Below, piece by piece: positions 22,206-31,076 of a stretch of 64,000 nucleotides of DNA (positions are counted from its first letter, which is position 1; every line of letters starts with the position of its first letter). The position numbers and the translations under genes were made by a program. This DNA comes from an uncultured SAR86 cluster bacterium (GTDB lineage Bacteria; Pseudomonadota; Gammaproteobacteria; Magnimaribacterales; D2472), in assembly GCA_902602595.1 (NCBI GenBank), contig CACKRJ010000003.1, positions 68,062 to 132,061 of the forward strand. The letters are read 5' to 3'. The notes under the pieces are model-generated. The model was given only the letters and a program-made list of their open reading frames with translations, was not told the origin of the DNA and ran no database searches.

Positions 22206-22595
22206 TTAAAGCGATCTAAGTCTTTGTGTTGGAATTGAAGATTTAGTATCTACAATTTCATTCGATTCGTTGAAATAAACTAACGTAGGAGCATGATTAG
22301 AGATTTGATTTTCAGACATTGATGCGTATGAACAAATTATAATTATATCTTTAGGTGACGCTTTATGAGCAGCCGCACCATTAATTGAAACTGTTTTTGA
22401 ACCAGCTTCAGCAGCAATTAAATATGTTGAGAAACGTTCTCCATTGGTAACGTTGTATATTTCAACTTTTTCATATTCAGTCATCTTGGCTGCTTTCATG
22501 AAGTCTGTATCTAAGGCGCACGAACCTTCGTAATCAATCTCAACCTGAGTTACGTGGAGACGATGCAGCTTTGAATTTAGTAACACTCTTTTCAT
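22206..22595 (-). CDS. panD: Aspartate 1-decarboxylase proenzyme
   Basis: MKRVLLNSKLHRLHVTQVEIDYEGSCALD matches the PanD N-terminus, including the Gly-Ser self-cleavage site. The track start at 22613 is a TTG. The ATG at 22595 fits PanD length. Confidence 0.9.
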   Translation of the reverse strand: MKRVLLNSKLHRLHVTQVEIDYEGSCALDTDFMKAAKMTEYEKVEIYNVTNGERFSTYLIAAEAGSKTVSINGAAAHKASPKDIIIICSYASMSENQISNHAPTLVYFNESNEIVDTKSSIPTQRLRSL

Positions 22596-22635
22596 AGGTT
22601 GAGAAGTATGCAAGAAAAACGCCTAAAATCCAATA

Positions 22636-23451
22636 TTATTGAATAATAAAATTGTCTATCAGCCTTACATTTCCAAGCTTTGCAGCGATAGCTACTAAAG
22701 TATTTGGTTCAAACTTAAATAACTCTTCAAGGGTAGTAGAATTACAAAATAAAAAATAATCTACGTTAAAATTTAACTTTTCCAATCTCTCAATACCTTC
22801 TATTTTTAAATCTGCTAAGTTTTCATACTTAGATCTTTTTGCAATTTCTTTTAGGATAACTGGTAGATGTTTTGCATTTATCCTTTGCTGAGAAGACATC
22901 AAGTTATTTCTTGAAGACATTGCTAATCCATCCTCCTCTCTTTGAGTTGGAACCCCATGAATGTCTATGTTGAGATTTGAATTAATCAAAAAATCTTTAA
23001 CTATCAAATATTGTTGATAATCTTTAAGTCCAAAAAATACATTAGTAGGCCTAACCAATTGAAATAAATAATTAAGAATTGTAATCACTCCATCAAAAAA
23101 ATGCGGTCTTGAGATTCCGCAAAGTTTTTTTGAAAGCGCTGAATTCGCACTTAATTTAATCGCATTTTTTGCAAAATCAGGAGCTGGGCAAAAAACTGCA
23201 TCGCATGAAATTGCTTCAAGATGCATTAGATCTTGATCCAGCGTCCTTGGATAAACATCCAGATCTTCATTAGGGCCAAATTGAAGAGGGTTAACGTAAA
23301 TAGAAGCTAAGGTAACTCCATCAAACTTATTAGCCTCGGTCACTAATTTAAGGTGGCCATAATGAAGATTACCCATCGTTGGGACAAAATTTATCTCTCC
23401 ACTAGAGTTAAGGAATTTATCTAAATCATTCAGTGAATTAAGAACTTTCAA
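22636..23451 (-). CDS. panC: Pantoate--beta-alanine ligase
   Basis: FVPTMGNLHYGHLKLV (HxGH motif) and about 271 aa. It lies between panB and panD. Confidence 0.95.
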   Translation of the reverse strand: MKVLNSLNDLDKFLNSSGEINFVPTMGNLHYGHLKLVTEANKFDGVTLASIYVNPLQFGPNEDLDVYPRTLDQDLMHLEAISCDAVFCPAPDFAKNAIKLSANSALSKKLCGISRPHFFDGVITILNYLFQLVRPTNVFFGLKDYQQYLIVKDFLINSNLNIDIHGVPTQREEDGLAMSSRNNLMSSQQRINAKHLPVILKEIAKRSKYENLADLKIEGIERLEKLNFNVDYFLFCNSTTLEELFKFEPNTLVAIAAKLGNVRLIDNFIIQ

Positions 23452-23453
23452 GT

Positions 23454-24269
23454 TTAAAAAAAAGTATGTTCTTCTGCTGGAAATTGCTTTTCTTTGACTG
23501 CTTTAACATAAGCTTTTACAGAGCTTTGAATAGAATCATTTTCAGCAAGAAAGTTTTTAACAAATTTTGGTGATTTCTCTAAGCACGAAATTCCTAGCAA
23601 ATCATGTATTACCATGACCTGAGCATCTGTAGAAACTCCAGCACCTATTCCAATAACTGGAATTGATAAAGATTGAGTAATTTCCTTGGCTAAATCTGAT
23701 GGGACGCACTCTAACAACAAAAGTGATGCTCCAGCAGACTCTAAAGCCTTTGCCTCAGAGATCATCTCATCCCTCTTATCTGTATCTCTACCCTGAACAA
23801 AATATCCACCAATTCTATTAATAGATTGAGGTGTGAGACCCATGTGAGCGCAAACTGGTATTCCTCTTTCAGCTAATGTGTTGGTTAAATCGCAAATCCA
23901 ATGGCCCCCTTCAAGCTTGATAGAGTGAGCTCCATTCTGCATCAAAATGCCCGCATTTAATAAAGCAGCATCTTTGGTTGCATAGCTCATAAAAGGCATG
24001 TCTGCCATCAGATGGGAGTTCACATTTCCTCTAGAAACGTTTCTTAAATGGTAGATCAAGTCATCCATGGTTACTGGAAGTGTACTTTCATGGCCCTGGA
24101 TAACCATTCCCAAGCTATCACCAACTAAAATAATCTCAACACCAGCCTGGCTGATGATATTTGCAAGAGTCGATTCATAAGCGGTTAAACATGTAAATTT
24201 TTCTCCCTTTGCCTTTAAGTTTTGCAAAGTATTGATAGTTACCAATGATTGAGATTGATGGGCTGACAT
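23454..24269 (-). CDS. panB: 3-methyl-2-oxobutanoate hydroxymethyltransferase
   Basis: LTAYESTLANI...ILVGDSLGMV...IKLEGG...VCAHMGLTPQS is the typical PanB pattern. Confidence 0.95.
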   Translation of the reverse strand: MSAHQSQSLVTINTLQNLKAKGEKFTCLTAYESTLANIISQAGVEIILVGDSLGMVIQGHESTLPVTMDDLIYHLRNVSRGNVNSHLMADMPFMSYATKDAALLNAGILMQNGAHSIKLEGGHWICDLTNTLAERGIPVCAHMGLTPQSINRIGGYFVQGRDTDKRDEMISEAKALESAGASLLLLECVPSDLAKEITQSLSIPVIGIGAGVSTDAQVMVIHDLLGISCLEKSPKFVKNFLAENDSIQSSVKAYVKAVKEKQFPAEEHTFF

Positions 24270-24271
24270 AA

Positions 24272-25474
24272 TTAGTGAAGTGATTGATTTTCTTTGCTCA
24301 GCAAATTAACCAATTGGATAGCTAGAAGATTTTTTGATGCTTTATGAAAAAATTGATGTGAATTATCTGTAAAAACACTAACTTCATTATAATCAGAATC
24401 AAATCCAATATCTGACTTAGAGACATCGTTAGCAACAATAAAGTCTAAGCCTTTCTTGATTAATTTTGATTTTGCATGCTCTTCAACTCTTTCAGTTTCT
24501 GCGCAGAAGCCCATAAATCTTTTATCAGGAAACTCTCTAGCTAACGATGAAATAATATCAATGTTTTTTTGCAACTCTATATTTAGTCGATCTTCATCTG
24601 TCTTTTTAATTTTTTGTATATTTGCATGCACTGGTTTGAAATCAGCAACTGCAGCGCAGCCTATAAAAATATCAGCGTCAGACATTGATGATTGAGCTTC
24701 TCTGTACATCTCATCCGCTGTTTGAACATCCAGTCTTTGTATTTGCGGTGAGCAAGAAAGAGAAACAGGTCCAGTAATTAAAATTACTTCAGCGCCAGAT
24801 ATTGCAGCCGCTTCAGCCATTGCGAATCCCATTTTTCCTGAACTATTATTTGAAATAAACCTTACTGGATCAATTTGCTCACGAGTGGGGCCAGCCGTAA
24901 CGATTATCTTTTTTCCTATCAAAGATTTATTTTGAGTTAACATGATCGTCTCATATATTTCCTCAGGCTCAGACATTCTTCCATAGCCATTATCACCACA
25001 TGCTTGTTCTCCTTTAGATGGGCCAACAATATCCATGCCAATAGATGATAGATATTCTATATTTTGTTGAGTCGTTTGATTTGACCACATATTCATGTTC
25101 ATTGCTGGAGCTATAAATTTTTGAGCTTCAGAGGCTAAGAAAATAGCACCAAGGAGGTCATCAGCTCTTCCTTGAGTTAGTCGAGAAATAGTTTCAGCAC
25201 TACAGGGCGCAATCACAATTAAATCAGCCCATTTAGCTAACTCAATGTGGCCCATAGCCCTCTCAGCTTCGGTATCAAGAAGATTTTCATGCACCTGATG
25301 ACCGCTAATAGCTTGCAAAGTAAGGGGTGTTATAAATTCTTTTGATGCCTCCGTCATAACTACCCGAACATCAAAATTATTTTTTATAAATAAACGAGCA
25401 AGATCAACAGATTTATATGCAGCTATGCTGCCTGTAATGCAAAGCAATAAATTTGATTTTTTTTTATCTAACAT
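24272..25474 (-). CDS. coaBC: Bifunctional phosphopantothenoylcysteine decarboxylase / phosphopantothenate--cysteine ligase
   Basis: The N-terminal flavoprotein domain reads LLCITGSIAAYKSVDLARL and PAMNMNMW. The C-terminal ligase domain reads TAGPTREQIDPVRFISNNSSGKMG and AAVADF. Confidence 0.95.
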   Translation of the reverse strand: MLDKKKSNLLLCITGSIAAYKSVDLARLFIKNNFDVRVVMTEASKEFITPLTLQAISGHQVHENLLDTEAERAMGHIELAKWADLIVIAPCSAETISRLTQGRADDLLGAIFLASEAQKFIAPAMNMNMWSNQTTQQNIEYLSSIGMDIVGPSKGEQACGDNGYGRMSEPEEIYETIMLTQNKSLIGKKIIVTAGPTREQIDPVRFISNNSSGKMGFAMAEAAAISGAEVILITGPVSLSCSPQIQRLDVQTADEMYREAQSSMSDADIFIGCAAVADFKPVHANIQKIKKTDEDRLNIELQKNIDIISSLAREFPDKRFMGFCAETERVEEHAKSKLIKKGLDFIVANDVSKSDIGFDSDYNEVSVFTDNSHQFFHKASKNLLAIQLVNLLSKENQSLH

Positions 25475-25994: not shown

Positions 25995-26396
25995 ATGCCA
26001 ATTCAACGAATTGCACGAATAGACAATTCAAAAGATAATAATTTAATGACATTAAAAGATTTAATCGCGCAGGCTCACTCCATGGTTCCTAAAATTTCTT
26101 GTGAAAGTTTCTCGGACAACTCAGAACAGTACTTCGTAATAGATGTTAGGGAGGGAACTGAAATAGAGGAAACTGGAATTATAGCTAATGCTGTAAACAT
26201 CCCCAGAGGATTGATTGAGATGAAACTTACGCCATCTAATGATGATAAGGGTTTAAATGCAAATACGCCAATTATCGTTTACTGTGGTGGCGGAAGTAGA
26301 GCTTCTCTTGCTGGTAAGACATTGATAGAGCTTGGGTTTAAAAATGTTCAAAACCTTCAAGGTGGTTTTAGAGGCTGGAAAGATTTTTCTAGTTAA
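25995..26396 (+). CDS. Single-domain rhodanese-like sulfurtransferase
   Basis: The active-site loop is IIVYCGGGSRASLAGKTL, followed by QNLQGGFRGWKD. These are typical rhodanese C-terminal features. Confidence 0.8.
   Translation: MPIQRIARIDNSKDNNLMTLKDLIAQAHSMVPKISCESFSDNSEQYFVIDVREGTEIEETGIIANAVNIPRGLIEMKLTPSNDDKGLNANTPIIVYCGGGSRASLAGKTLIELGFKNVQNLQGGFRGWKDFSS
26370..26387. repeat. Direct repeat copy 1, AGAGGCTGGAAAGATTTT (inside the rhodanese 3' end)
   Basis: Exact 18-nt match to 27418-27435. It encodes RGWKDF in the rhodanese frame. Confidence 0.8.
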
Positions 26397-27388
26397 TCTA
26401 ATTTAGGTAACAGTAGGCTTAGATGTTCATAAGCAGCATTTTTATATTCAGGACTAGCTCCAGCCATGACCTCACCTTTTACTGCACAACTTTCATAAGC
26501 GGTCCTTCTAAGCTTGGGATCAGAGAAATCTAAAAGTTTATTTTGAGGATCATAGACTTTTTTAGTGTCTGCATTGAGTTTTAATTTACACTCAGCCCAG
26601 CTATAAGCATCCGGTATTAACCTTAGGGGTTGAGGACCATCAAACGAATGAAAGGAATTAGGATAAAGCTCAATAAACGCATTGCCCCCCTGCCCATTAA
26701 TATCTGCAACTAATTCCTGACATGGTTGAGGCGGAGTCCAGTTATCTTCCTCGCCAATATAAATTTGCATTAAATCTTTATCCCACTCATTTAAATCAGG
26801 TAATGCTAAGCAGCCTGGATACCACATGAGATAACCTGCATATGATGCACCACTTTTATTAATTGAATGCTGTAATGGGAGCCATCCGTTAAACAAAGCC
26901 GCAGTGCCGCCTAAGCTCCAACCTGCTGCATAAATTTTTTTATTGTTAATTCTTGAATCATCCCACAACAAATTAAGGCTCATAGCCATGTCATAAATTA
27001 CAGTTTCACTAGTAACATTTATCTGATTGCCAACTGTGCTATTAATACCTCTCGAATCAAAAGGATGCATAGCTAAAATGATAAAACCAGCTTGACGCAT
27101 TTGCTCTAAATACTTTAAATGATGAGCTCGCCAATTAGATGAACCATGTGAGGCTACAATAGCAGGATATTTTTTCAGCGAATCGTAATTGTCAGGAAAG
27201 TGCAAGACTCCGAATATTTTTACATTTTTTTGAGCATGCAAACCGTCACCAAATAAATTTTCAAAGCCAAGTATGTTTTTGGAGGCATATTCAATCTTCT
27301 CAGTTAAGTAGGTTGGCTTGACTTCAGCTGGCTGAGAGCAACCAAAAATAAATAACGCAAGAGATATAATCTGAATGAGCTTCATCAT
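26393..27388 (-). CDS. Alpha/beta-hydrolase lipoprotein (dienelactone-hydrolase-like)
   Basis: Lipobox LFIFGCS and nucleophile elbow AAGWSLGG. A late His occurs in NSFHSF. The 3' end overlaps the rhodanese stop by 4 nt (convergent). Confidence 0.75.
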   Translation of the reverse strand: MMKLIQIISLALFIFGCSQPAEVKPTYLTEKIEYASKNILGFENLFGDGLHAQKNVKIFGVLHFPDNYDSLKKYPAIVASHGSSNWRAHHLKYLEQMRQAGFIILAMHPFDSRGINSTVGNQINVTSETVIYDMAMSLNLLWDDSRINNKKIYAAGWSLGGTAALFNGWLPLQHSINKSGASYAGYLMWYPGCLALPDLNEWDKDLMQIYIGEEDNWTPPQPCQELVADINGQGGNAFIELYPNSFHSFDGPQPLRLIPDAYSWAECKLKLNADTKKVYDPQNKLLDFSDPKLRRTAYESCAVKGEVMAGASPEYKNAAYEHLSLLLPKLD

Positions 27389-27417
27389 TTAATTTTAAAA
27401 AATCATGTAGTGACCTG

Positions 27418-27435
27418 AGAGGCTGGAAAGATTTT
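27418..27435. repeat. Direct repeat copy 2, AGAGGCTGGAAAGATTTT
   Basis: Exact 18-nt repeat of 26370-26387. Read in the same frame it continues RGWKDFTEKTTKLK*, with the stop at 27460-27462. Confidence 0.8.
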
Positions 27436-27445
27436 ACTGAAAAGA

Positions 27446-27697
27446 CTACAAAACTAAAATAGTAAATATCATAGAAAGTAGCACTAAGTCAGGAGGAGTT
27501 TCTTGCTGATAGCTTGATTGAGTTGATTTAGTTTCTGAATCTGAGTCTAAAATTTTTGCAGGCTCTGCTTGTGCCACCTCCTCTACAATTTCCTGAGTAG
27601 AAGTTTCCTGAACTGCATCTATATCTGCAGGAAGAATTGGATTATCTGCTAAAACAAATAACGGCATGATTAACAGGCTAAGTTTTAAAAATTTCAT
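27446..27697 (-). CDS. Small secreted acidic protein with a C-terminal hydrophobic tail
   Basis: Signal peptide MKFLKLSLLIMPLFVLA, an acidic Ser/Thr/Glu-rich middle, and a C-terminus PPDLVLLSMIFTILVL*. No recognisable family. Confidence 0.4.
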   Translation of the reverse strand: MKFLKLSLLIMPLFVLADNPILPADIDAVQETSTQEIVEEVAQAEPAKILDSDSETKSTQSSYQQETPPDLVLLSMIFTILVL

Positions 27698-27769
27698 TAT
27701 TTTAATGCTCCTAAAAATAAACTTTAAATTAATCCCTATAATTGCACATATTCATAAATTTTTAAATTG

Positions 27770-28576: not shown

Positions 28577-28763
28577 GTAAATCTCCATTTTTATATTAAT
28601 GTTAGTCTAGTATGAAAACTAATAATAGGATATCAAATGGAATGGTTTAAAAAATTAGATAGTTTATTTTTTATTTTAGGTAGATCTATGCTTGAGCTAT
28701 ATATTATAGGTCCTAGATTAAGCAAAGTTTTTGATATTACTGGAGGCTTATTGGTGCTAGCAA

Positions 28764-29039
28764 CTAAAGATAGAAACTAATAGTTTGTATAACTCCAATC
28801 AATCCTAGCCAGCCAAGATAGGCTAATCTTGCAATTGAAGTGTTTTGATGATTCCAAACTCCAAAAGCTCCAAAAGCTCCGCAGGCTCCGAGATTGGGAA
28901 TCCAAAATCCAGCCAAGCCTAAAAAACCTAGCAAGCCCAATAATCTAATTGGGCCGCCGGACTGACTTGGATGAACTTTATTAAGAAGACCTGTTAAACC
29001 GATAAGACCGAATAATCCGACCAGCCCCAGGTAACTCAT
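28764..29039 (-). CDS. Small Gly/Leu-repeat membrane protein
   Basis: Three segments follow the pattern LGLxGLxGLxG: YLGLVGLFGLIGLTGLL, LLGLLGFLGLAGFW and YLGWLGLIGVI. There is also a GAFGAFG tandem. It sits 3 nt downstream of the RRM gene. Confidence 0.45.
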   Translation of the reverse strand: MSYLGLVGLFGLIGLTGLLNKVHPSQSGGPIRLLGLLGFLGLAGFWIPNLGACGAFGAFGVWNHQNTSIARLAYLGWLGLIGVIQTISFYL

Positions 29040-30281: not shown

Positions 30282-31076
30282 TCAATTGTTCCTCGGATGC
30301 ATATTATTTAAAGTTTGACTAAGTCTAATGGCACCTAAGGCAATCCTTTCTTGAACAACCTTAAAGTGGCTTTCCATGTATTCATTTGTAACAACTTTTA
30401 ATTCATTATTGCGATACCCAATCGATGGCAGCATTGCAATGTCTCGGCTTTCTTGAGCCCATGCTTCAATTTCTTCAGAGTGAGAGTTCTTCAGAAATTT
30501 ATTTATTTTTTTAGAAACATTAACCAAAAGATACTCTTCGCCAAACAAAGAGTCCATATGCTCGATAATTTGGCCATCCCATACACTATGCATGTTGGTT
30601 AGACTTCCATCAGCAAATTTAAGTTTATGATCATTCCCACCTCTGTCTTCTGGATAACCTACATGCATGGGCTGATGAATGTCTCCAACAAAATGTCCTA
30701 TGAACCATAGAGCCTCAGCTCTTAAATGAAATGTTTCAGAAGGATTTTTTAAAATATTTATTTGCTCGTGAAAGGCAGCAATCAGGCATCCATTTTCTGG
30801 ACACGAGGTTTTGTATGTATTTTGTTCTGAATCAGGAAGATTGATGTAATGCCAAGATCTTGTATCTTTCCTATCATCATTCTTAACCCAATCAGCCCAA
30901 AGGCATGCAGTGCCAAATGATCCGTGCTCTTTAATTAAAGGGTCTACAAATTTCTTTGCTGGAACAGATAATAATTTATAAGCTTCATCACATACCATGC
31001 GATGTGCCTTATCCCACCATGCATTCGCATTAAATGAAACAGTAATTAACAGCGCAAATGAAAGATTTTGAATCAT
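30282..31076 (-). CDS. Secreted S1/P1-family zinc nuclease
   Basis: The signal peptide ends NANA, followed by WWDKAHRMV. An N-terminal Trp is a Zn ligand in P1 nuclease. Other matches are HYINLP, GDIHQPMHVG, GGNDHK and MHSVWD. Confidence 0.85.
   Translation of the reverse strand: MIQNLSFALLITVSFNANAWWDKAHRMVCDEAYKLLSVPAKKFVDPLIKEHGSFGTACLWADWVKNDDRKDTRSWHYINLPDSEQNTYKTSCPENGCLIAAFHEQINILKNPSETFHLRAEALWFIGHFVGDIHQPMHVGYPEDRGGNDHKLKFADGSLTNMHSVWDGQIIEHMDSLFGEEYLLVNVSKKINKFLKNSHSEEIEAWAQESRDIAMLPSIGYRNNELKVVTNEYMESHFKVVQERIALGAIRLSQTLNNMHPRNN

Follow-up and report, generated by a model that had tools for sequence, protein, structure and literature searches.

What is the origin of an exact 18-bp direct repeat that brackets a single gene in the streamlined genome of an uncultured ocean bacterium of the SAR86 group? 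In a 64-kb stretch of this genome (the window; the SAR86 genome has about 35% G+C), the sequence AGAGGCTGGAAAGATTTT is found as two exact + strand copies, at 26370-26387 (copy 1) and 27418-27435 (copy 2). Copy 1 encodes R126-F131 near the end of a rhodanese gene (RGWKDF, followed by SS and the stop), and copy 2, in the same frame as copy 1, translates as RGWKDFTEKTTKLK, with the tail TEKTTKLK and a TAG stop at 27460-27462. Between the copies there is essentially one gene, an alpha/beta-hydrolase gene on the opposite strand, whose stop overlaps that of the rhodanese gene by 4 nt. All of these features had been read correctly in the original prediction, which went on to propose that the hydrolase gene was inserted into the 3' end of an ancestral rhodanese gene, by homology-mediated or target-duplicating recombination, as a compact single-gene cassette. 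Comparison with related SAR86 loci shows that copy 2 is the best-preserved part of a decaying relic of about 64 nt, derived from the 3' end of a rhodanese gene in another haplotype, and that the window probably carries a recombinant of two haplotypes.

Loci for comparison were taken from SAR86 genomes matched through the neighbouring coaBC gene and from contigs fetched via homologues of the rhodanese and of an 83-aa open reading frame (ORF) adjoining copy 2; SAR86 is represented here by metagenome-assembled and single-cell genomes and by metagenome contigs. By coaBC, the closest genome is LRMED-353 (L001, 93% identical), followed by MED-G84 (L003) and AG-325-E16 (L002). Four arrangements were found between the rhodanese gene and a methyltransferase gene. 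Type A (L002) has a rhodanese gene ending FSK-stop, a terminator and a gene for a 1016-aa TonB-dependent receptor (TBDR), with no hydrolase gene. In type B (L001 and L003) the rhodanese gene (ending FSS-stop or FSD-stop) overlaps the hydrolase gene by the same 4 nt as in the window, and a terminator hairpin and a 980-aa TBDR gene follow. Type C, which comprises the window, L081-L088, L094-L101 and L110-L112, has the rhodanese gene, the hydrolase gene, the copy-2 region and the 83-aa ORF. Type D (L089-L093, L102-L109 and L113) is without the hydrolase gene, and its long-tailed rhodanese gene overlaps the 83-aa ORF by 17 nt; in L089, L090, L107 and L113 the rhodanese ends RGWK(K/E)FA(K/E)KT(K/I)KLK-stop and converges directly on the 83-aa ORF. 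The empty site that had been predicted therefore exists, as a hydrolase-free haplotype with the same 17-nt overlap that the end of the copy-2 reading frame has with the 83-aa ORF in the window. The locus is a small hypervariable spot in SAR86 at which alternative arrangements coexist in the ocean. As the window arrangement is present in many independent assemblies, an assembly artefact is an unlikely source of it.

The relation of copy 2 to the D-type rhodanese is direct: from 27399 to beyond 27462 the window aligns base for base with the D-type 3' end and tail. The aligned stretch begins with aaaatcatgtag (codons Q-N-L-E), continues with the patch tgacctg (27411-27417), which replaces the codons G-G-Y, and then with copy 2, and closes with TEKTTKLK-stop (27436-27462). 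In L081, which belongs to a sister population, the sequence upstream of copy 2 reads AAAATCTTGAA-TTGACCTG-AGAGGCTGG, and the D-type rhodanese reads AAAATCTTGAA-GGAGGCTAC-AGAGGCTGG; AAAATCTTGAA is an exact 11-nt match preceding the patch. From this match the relic spans the codons Q-N-L-E-(G-G-Y)-R-G-W-K-D-F and the long tail, about 64 nt in all, and its homology to the D-type rhodanese reaches about 19 nt upstream of the 18-mer. The scrambled patch of 7-8 nt in place of the G-G-Y codons bounds the 18-mer on the left, and its right edge is the point at which the short- and long-tail variants of the rhodanese diverge. This alignment bears out the proposed identity of copy 2 as a genuine leftover of the 3' end of a rhodanese gene.

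The sequence upstream of the hydrolase gene is common to types B and C as far as a run of A residues; beyond it type B passes into the TBDR terminator hairpin and type C into rhodanese sequence, so that the joint falls within the A-run at 27397-27402 and not at the edge of the 18-mer. This run stands against AACAAAAAAAA in type B and CCAAAA in the rhodanese gene, runs of 4-6 nt that are weak evidence in an AT-rich genome. No terminator was predicted in the scanned region of the window, including the interval between the 83-aa ORF, the relic and the hydrolase gene, where type B has one. The B-type intergenic region was also considered as the source of copy 2 and rejected, because L001 and L003 have the terminator hairpin there and a faint AGAGGGCT resemblance that was judged coincidental. 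One joint, the patch (T/G)TG(A/G)CC(T/C)G and the markers ACT...TAGT were found in 12 of the 12 C loci compared, and all 10 compared D loci carry GCT...TAGC. The identity of relic and joint across the C-type lineages argues for one origin, and the event would be old and single rather than a recent gain in this genome.

The relic has not been preserved equally in all type C lineages. Copy 2 reads AGAGGTTAAAAAGAG-TT in L094 and L110, giving a stop and a frameshift, and AGAGGTTTGAAAGAG-TT in L111; one nucleotide has been deleted from the relic of L098. In L081, copies 1 and 2 have only 14 exact bases in common and differ at 2 of the 18 positions (copy 1 ...GAGTTT, copy 2 ...GATTCT), so that the 18-mer is neither a target-site duplication nor an att or recombinase core. 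The exactness of the 18-bp repeat is specific to the window's lineage, and the relic is non-coding now and decaying. Target-duplicating recombination, one of the routes offered in the original prediction, is at odds with homology that continues for about 19 nt past the 18-mer, with the position of the joint in the A-run, with the 14-nt match in L081 and with the decay of copy 2 elsewhere.

Taken alone, the 18-mer pair is only moderately significant. No exact direct repeat in the window is longer, and the runner-up has 16 nt; no further exact copy of AGAGGCTGGAAAGATTTT is present in the window, and the only near matches besides have 3 mismatches and are on the - strand. In 300 order-3 Markov simulations of the window, an exact repeat of at least 18 nt arose in 48, and one with its copies at most 1.1 kb apart in a single simulation (about 0.3%); a 14-mer pair within 1.1 kb was seen in 172. 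A chance repeat was rejected on the strength of that single case in 300 and, more firmly, of the base-for-base homology with type D; it is this comparative evidence, beyond the repeat statistics, that identifies copy 2 as true homology. A dispersed repeat was rejected by counting, as the original prediction had suggested: besides the two window copies, the 18-mer occurs once among the 106 other loci fetched, inside the rhodanese gene of L096.

The rhodanese tails themselves bear on which form is ancestral. Among 120 homologues of the rhodanese, with identities down to about 70%, nearly all end FS(S/N/D/G/V)-stop, and the short tail is found also in the hydrolase-free L002 and in L001 and L003, which have the hydrolase gene together with an intact TBDR gene. 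The long tail is confined to the TBDR-deleted haplotypes. The short tail is thus the normal, common form and the long tail the derived one; the claim that insertion of the hydrolase gene created a new short C-terminus fails on the same evidence, the short tail being already normal in nearly all of the homologues, types A and B included. An AAA-to-TAA nonsense change trims the long tail to FAE-stop in L091 (1218-1250), L102-L106 and L108, with loss of the overlap with the 83-aa ORF, and such trimming in several D lineages indicates that the long tail is dispensable. The FAE-stop tail (P0096/P0099) was considered as an independent insertion and rejected in favour of this plain nonsense mutation in a D-type locus.

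The 83-aa ORF probably represents the retained 5' fragment of the deleted TBDR gene. Over its first 27 residues, which hold a signal peptide and the motif ADNPIxPxDxD, it matches the N-terminus of the type A and B TBDRs, whose genes lie at the same position and on the same strand; tblastn to L001-L003 carries the similarity to about 64 residues, and at the nucleotide level the match with the TBDR 5' regions is clear over the first 100-130 nt or so and ambiguous beyond about 130 nt. Its length is 83-85 aa in 61 of 62 clusters (71 aa in the remaining one), and the ratio of nonsynonymous to synonymous divergence (dN/dS) between C and D copies is 0.2-0.4, at a synonymous divergence (dS) of 0.5-0.75. 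These values point to purifying selection, and the ORF is probably expressed and functional. In relatives it was located at 495-746 in L089, 4124-4375 in L102 and 4547-4798 in L094.

To follow the movement of these alleles, backbones were ranked by amino-acid identity to the window over argG, OTCase and patatin. The values are 97-100% for L081 (type C), 95-97% for L001 (B), 89-94% for L102 (D), 85-91% for L002 (A) and 79-84% for L003, L094 and L098 (B, C and C, respectively). The 83-aa ORF departs from this ranking: in L094 and L098 it is 83-87% identical to that of the window (dS 0.17-0.34), and in L102 it is farther removed, at 77%; between the window and L098 its dS is about 0.17 despite backbones that are only about 80% identical in protein sequence. 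The hydrolase gene of L098 is a mosaic, with nt 1-500 87-95% identical to the window and the following part 92-98% identical to L003, and in L094 the identity switches at about nt 200-300. Module identities that depart from the backbone ranking, together with mosaic hydrolase genes, show that L003-like backbones acquired the C-type module (83-aa ORF, relic and 5' part of the hydrolase gene) through crossovers that fell within the hydrolase gene. By homologous recombination the module has thus spread from one SAR86 clade to another. The tail-to-tail overlap of 4 nt with the rhodanese gene is common to distant SAR86 clades, from which the hydrolase gene is a resident SAR86 gene and not a foreign cassette, and the proposed gain of a single-gene cassette was accordingly abandoned.

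Haplotypes of both parental types exist, B in L001 and L003 and D in L089, L090, L102, L107 and L113; the relic and the 83-aa ORF are collinear with type D, and the hydrolase and rhodanese genes with type B. We consider it probable that type C arose by recombination between a B-like and a D-like haplotype, with a single illegitimate joint, and that the D-like arrangement came first, the hydrolase gene coming to lie between the repeats secondarily. The initial step would have been a deletion that removed most of the TBDR gene through to the last codons of the convergent rhodanese gene, stop included, leaving the 83-aa receptor 5' fragment and a rhodanese with a read-through tail ending KTxKLK-stop, which is type D. 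Recombination between D-type and B-type DNA would then have yielded type C, once, with type B supplying the FSx-stop rhodanese gene that overlaps the hydrolase gene. One side of the exchange would have been homologous and the other an illegitimate joint in the short A-run, between the sequence just upstream of the hydrolase gene and the CAAAA of the Q-N codons in the D-type rhodanese. Type C could be the product of any of three processes: homology-facilitated illegitimate recombination, integration of a circularised B-type fragment into a D-type chromosome by a single crossover, or the entry into a B-type chromosome of a D-type fragment that replaced the TBDR gene and terminator; the microhomology at the joint, the haplotype that acted as recipient and the order of events are what we infer here. 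By any of these routes a piece of about 64 nt from the 3' end of the D-type rhodanese gene would be left behind between the hydrolase gene and the 83-aa ORF, the exact 18-mer being the portion that still matches the live gene in the window's lineage. Ordinary homologous recombination would afterwards have carried the C-type module into distant SAR86 backbones; that such exchange does take place in SAR86 is shown by the mosaic hydrolase genes.

Several observations weigh against this history. In a tree of the 83-aa ORF the copies split into two shallow clades, one of type C and one of type D, with the dS given above between them and up to 0.36 within C, and neither is nested in the other; rooting of the 83-aa tree fails to settle the polarity, as the clades are reciprocal and the outgroup alignment is too poor. 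Homology between the 83-aa ORF and the TBDRs is solid only over the first 45-65 residues or so, and the endpoints of the type-D deletion are not mappable. The patch of 7 scrambled nucleotides between two perfectly kept stretches is not predicted by simple neutral decay and could point to a joint of greater complexity; as a microhomology, an A-run of this length is weak, being unremarkable at 35% G+C; and we know of no direct evidence of natural transformation or another DNA uptake route in SAR86. The reciprocally distinct C and D copies in the 83-aa tree are compatible also with the opposite order, in which type C came first and type D arose from it by deletion. The relic would then have been made in a B-type genome along with the TBDR deletion (for example through a double template switch in which about 40 nt from the rhodanese 3' end were copied to a place in front of the hydrolase gene), and later recombination or slippage between the repeats would have deleted the hydrolase gene and fused the rhodanese to the relic tail, leaving the 18-mer of the window as what remains of a deletion-prone repeat. 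A deletion between copies 1 and 2 does reproduce type D exactly, including the 17-nt overlap, and repeat-mediated deletion is common and would suit a streamlining genome, in which an internally deleted DoxX gene lies nearby. Making the relic inside one genome, however, needs an unusual two-jump event; a 230-aa gene is present in types B and D and absent in all C loci, which supports type D not being derived from type C and would require an extra loss were type C the earlier; the C-specific markers occur in no D locus; and the relic, contiguous with its tail, looks like the stranded end of a once-functional gene rather than templated filler. On this evidence we regard the C-first order as rather unlikely. 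As to the original proposal of insertion into the 3' end of an ancestral rhodanese gene, the remnant and the empty site are both real, and gain of the hydrolase gene between the repeats is more probable than its loss.

That the hydrolase gene is a one-gene mobile element, moved by a transposase, site-specific recombinase or integron with the repeat as its target-site duplication or att core, would account for an exact 18-bp direct repeat around essentially one gene, 18 bp being a plausible att length. Yet in sister lineages the copies are not exact (a match of 14 nt in L081, a decayed copy 2 in L094, L098 and L110), the rhodanese homology continues past the 18-mer, L001 and L003 show the same 4-nt overlap of hydrolase and rhodanese genes without a second copy, and the lone match to the 18-mer among the other loci is itself a rhodanese gene. 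The comparison of base composition proposed with the original prediction gave a G+C content of 0.35-0.40 for the segment and 0.29-0.41 for the flanks, with no difference and no compositional anomaly. As had been noted from the sequence, no transposase, integrase or recombinase was found among the neighbourhood ORFs and Pfam matches, and no inverted repeats that pair the ends of 26388-27417 and no attC-like structure were detected; the hydrolase 3' end directly overlaps the rhodanese stop with no attC-like inverted repeat there. There is no tRNA gene in the window between 15000 and 40000, and no relatives of the hydrolase were found in viral contigs. A transposon or insertion sequence, an integrase island and an integron cassette were all rejected on these grounds, and a mobile cassette of any such kind is highly improbable. 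The recombinant origin of type C could still be supplemented, rather than replaced, by gene conversion or by selection (for example for a function in the 5' region of the hydrolase gene) that kept copy 2 identical to copy 1. Both window copies have GAT at the variable codon, where L081 has GAG in copy 1 and GAT in copy 2; the first 14 nt are intact in 3 of 5 C lineages; and the relic sits 30-47 nt upstream of the hydrolase start. Against such maintenance stand the stops and frameshifts of copy 2 in the L094, L110 and L111 lineages, the lack of any promoter-like site for the hydrolase strand inside the relic in a promoter scan, a D/E polymorphism at the variable codon that exists in the population anyway, and a divergence within the C clade (dS up to the value given above) that is low enough for 14-18 nt to survive by chance; we therefore think it quite unlikely that such a force has acted.

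The recombination proposed for type C has known counterparts. The literature documents homology-facilitated illegitimate recombination and the orphaned 3' fragments that it leaves (PMC5361080, citing de Vries & Wackernagel, 2002; Prudhomme et al., 2002; Meier & Wackernagel, 2003), and in Escherichia coli single crossovers of circular molecules duplicate the homologous segment (PMC3240628). As in that form of recombination, the SAR86 exchange would have one end in homologous flanks and the other at a microhomology of a few bases, and would end in DNA being replaced or inserted, with a stranded piece of a neighbouring gene; unlike it, the mechanism is deduced here from a scar and two parental-type haplotypes, and the joint has the 7-nt scrambled patch. 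Orphaned 3' gene fragments are known also from Rhs/CDI loci and the effector-immunity arrays of type VI secretion systems (Kirchberger et al., 2017, PMC5361080). These arrays likewise have a displaced, non-functional gene 3' end beside an incoming module, and their modules spread by homologous recombination, but the SAR86 locus has neither toxin-immunity logic nor successive remnants, only a single relic of a housekeeping-type rhodanese gene. Small flexible genomic islands and replacement alleles, often of outer-membrane receptors, are a feature of marine bacterioplankton recognised by the groups of Rodriguez-Valera and Lopez-Perez. The present locus resembles them in its alternative gene contents at a fixed position between conserved flanks, in the presence or absence of the TBDR gene and in the occurrence of its alleles across divergent backbones; it differs in being very small, with one to three genes. 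Direct-repeat-mediated deletion during streamlining offers a further parallel, with short direct repeats on either side of a gene and an empty form that is the exact product of recombination between them, although the markers argue against recent interconversion and the repeats are too degenerate in most lineages. The literature searched yielded no account of this SAR86 locus and no SAR86-specific paper on such islands; the locus is a new example of a known process, not a new mechanism or element.

The locus illustrates how the gene content of an uncultured, streamlined ocean bacterium may change without mobile elements, through deletion, one illegitimate joint and the spread of an allele by homologous recombination. 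The relic is a useful metagenome marker for tracing the C-type allele, and a lesson of its analysis is that short exact repeats around a gene can be decayed gene ends and not target duplications. Of greater interest may be the by-products, a conserved 83-aa receptor fragment and receptor-loss alleles that spread across lineages. As a tentative suggestion, to which we give little weight, the 83-aa ORF could be a domesticated N-terminal TBDR fragment (signal peptide, N-terminal extension and hydrophobic end) that is selectively kept. The arrangements C, D and B would in that case be a balanced, long-lived polymorphism for having or lacking the receptor, for instance through a trade-off in phage reception or substrate uptake, moved across SAR86 species boundaries by homologous recombination, with the relic as a barcode of the one illegitimate event behind all receptor-loss alleles that retain the hydrolase gene.

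Table 1. Features of the variable segment and its flanks in the window (positions in the 64-kb stretch).
Feature	Position	Strand	Basis or remark
Rhodanese gene, 133 aa, ending GGFRGWKDFSS-stop	25995..26396	+	ORF; PF00581, E = 1.2e-17; 261 homologues, nearly all short-tailed (FSx-stop)
Live-gene counterpart of the relic, codons Q-N-L-Q-G-G-F-R-G-W-K-D-F	26350..26387	+	Contains copy 1 of the 18-mer
Alpha/beta-hydrolase gene, 331 aa, lipoprotein-type signal peptide (...IFGC)	26393..27388	-	ORF, Pfam, PDB match
Sequence upstream of the hydrolase gene (ttaattttaa and A-run), common with type B	27389..27402	.	Contains the joint, in the A-run
Relic of the D-type rhodanese 3' end, about 64 nt	27399..27462	+	Alignments with D-type L089, L090, L091, L102, L107, L108 and L113 and with C-type L081, L094, L098, L110 and L111
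83-aa ORF, signal peptide and ADNPIxPxDxD N-terminus	27446..27697	-	Alignment, tblastn, dN/dS
Methyltransferase gene, conserved flank beyond the variable segment	27770..28588	-	ORF, Pfam, comparison with relatives

The products of the rhodanese and hydrolase genes (Table 1) both match Pfam profiles above the curated cutoffs. The rhodanese scores 64.6 bits against PF00581, for which the curated cutoff is 22.2, and is thus a member of the family. The hydrolase is a marginal match to the dienelactone-hydrolase-like family DLH (PF01738), with 25.2 bits against a cutoff of 21, and residues 52-165 match alpha/beta hydrolases in the PDB, including an MHETase, at E = 1.8e-8.

Other differences in gene content were noted around the segment. 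The 230-aa gene mentioned above (230/231 aa; function unassigned) lies between the methyltransferase gene and the 83-aa ORF or TBDR gene, at 769-1461 in L089, 4222-4917 in L001 and 3409-4101 in L102. It was found in type B in L001 and in type D in L089, L102-L105, L108 and L109, and is absent from L002 as well as from every C locus; the window has no such gene at 27698-27769, where the intergenic sequence matches the region upstream of it in L089. On the other side of the rhodanese gene, the panD, panC, panB and coaBC block (window 22206-25474) is missing in L094, L098, L102 and L110, between OTCase and a 90-aa gene or the rhodanese gene, and argG directly adjoins the rhodanese gene in L091 and L107; the absence of the pan/coaBC block is a multi-gene indel. 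Beyond the methyltransferase gene, a 47-aa ORF at 28637-28780 (+) represents a DoxX gene that has lost an internal segment in frame, so that the N-terminal 34 residues or so are fused to the C-terminal GGLLVLATKDRN; the full DoxX gene, of 129-150 aa, is present in L001, L094, L098 and L102 between a 91-aa gene and the methyltransferase gene. The remnant in the window is a further deletion scar, 1 kb from the repeat region.

Sequence divergence is also uneven along the window. The hydrolase gene is about 88% identical in DNA and 92% in protein to its counterpart in L081 (5399-6394), while backbone proteins of the two are 97-100% identical, which marks the variable segment as a local hot spot of diversity. 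An S1-P1 nuclease gene at 30282-31076 (-) is 69% identical to its counterpart in L081 (9288-10088) among neighbours that are 97-100% identical, a divergence that suggests replacement of the allele by recombination.

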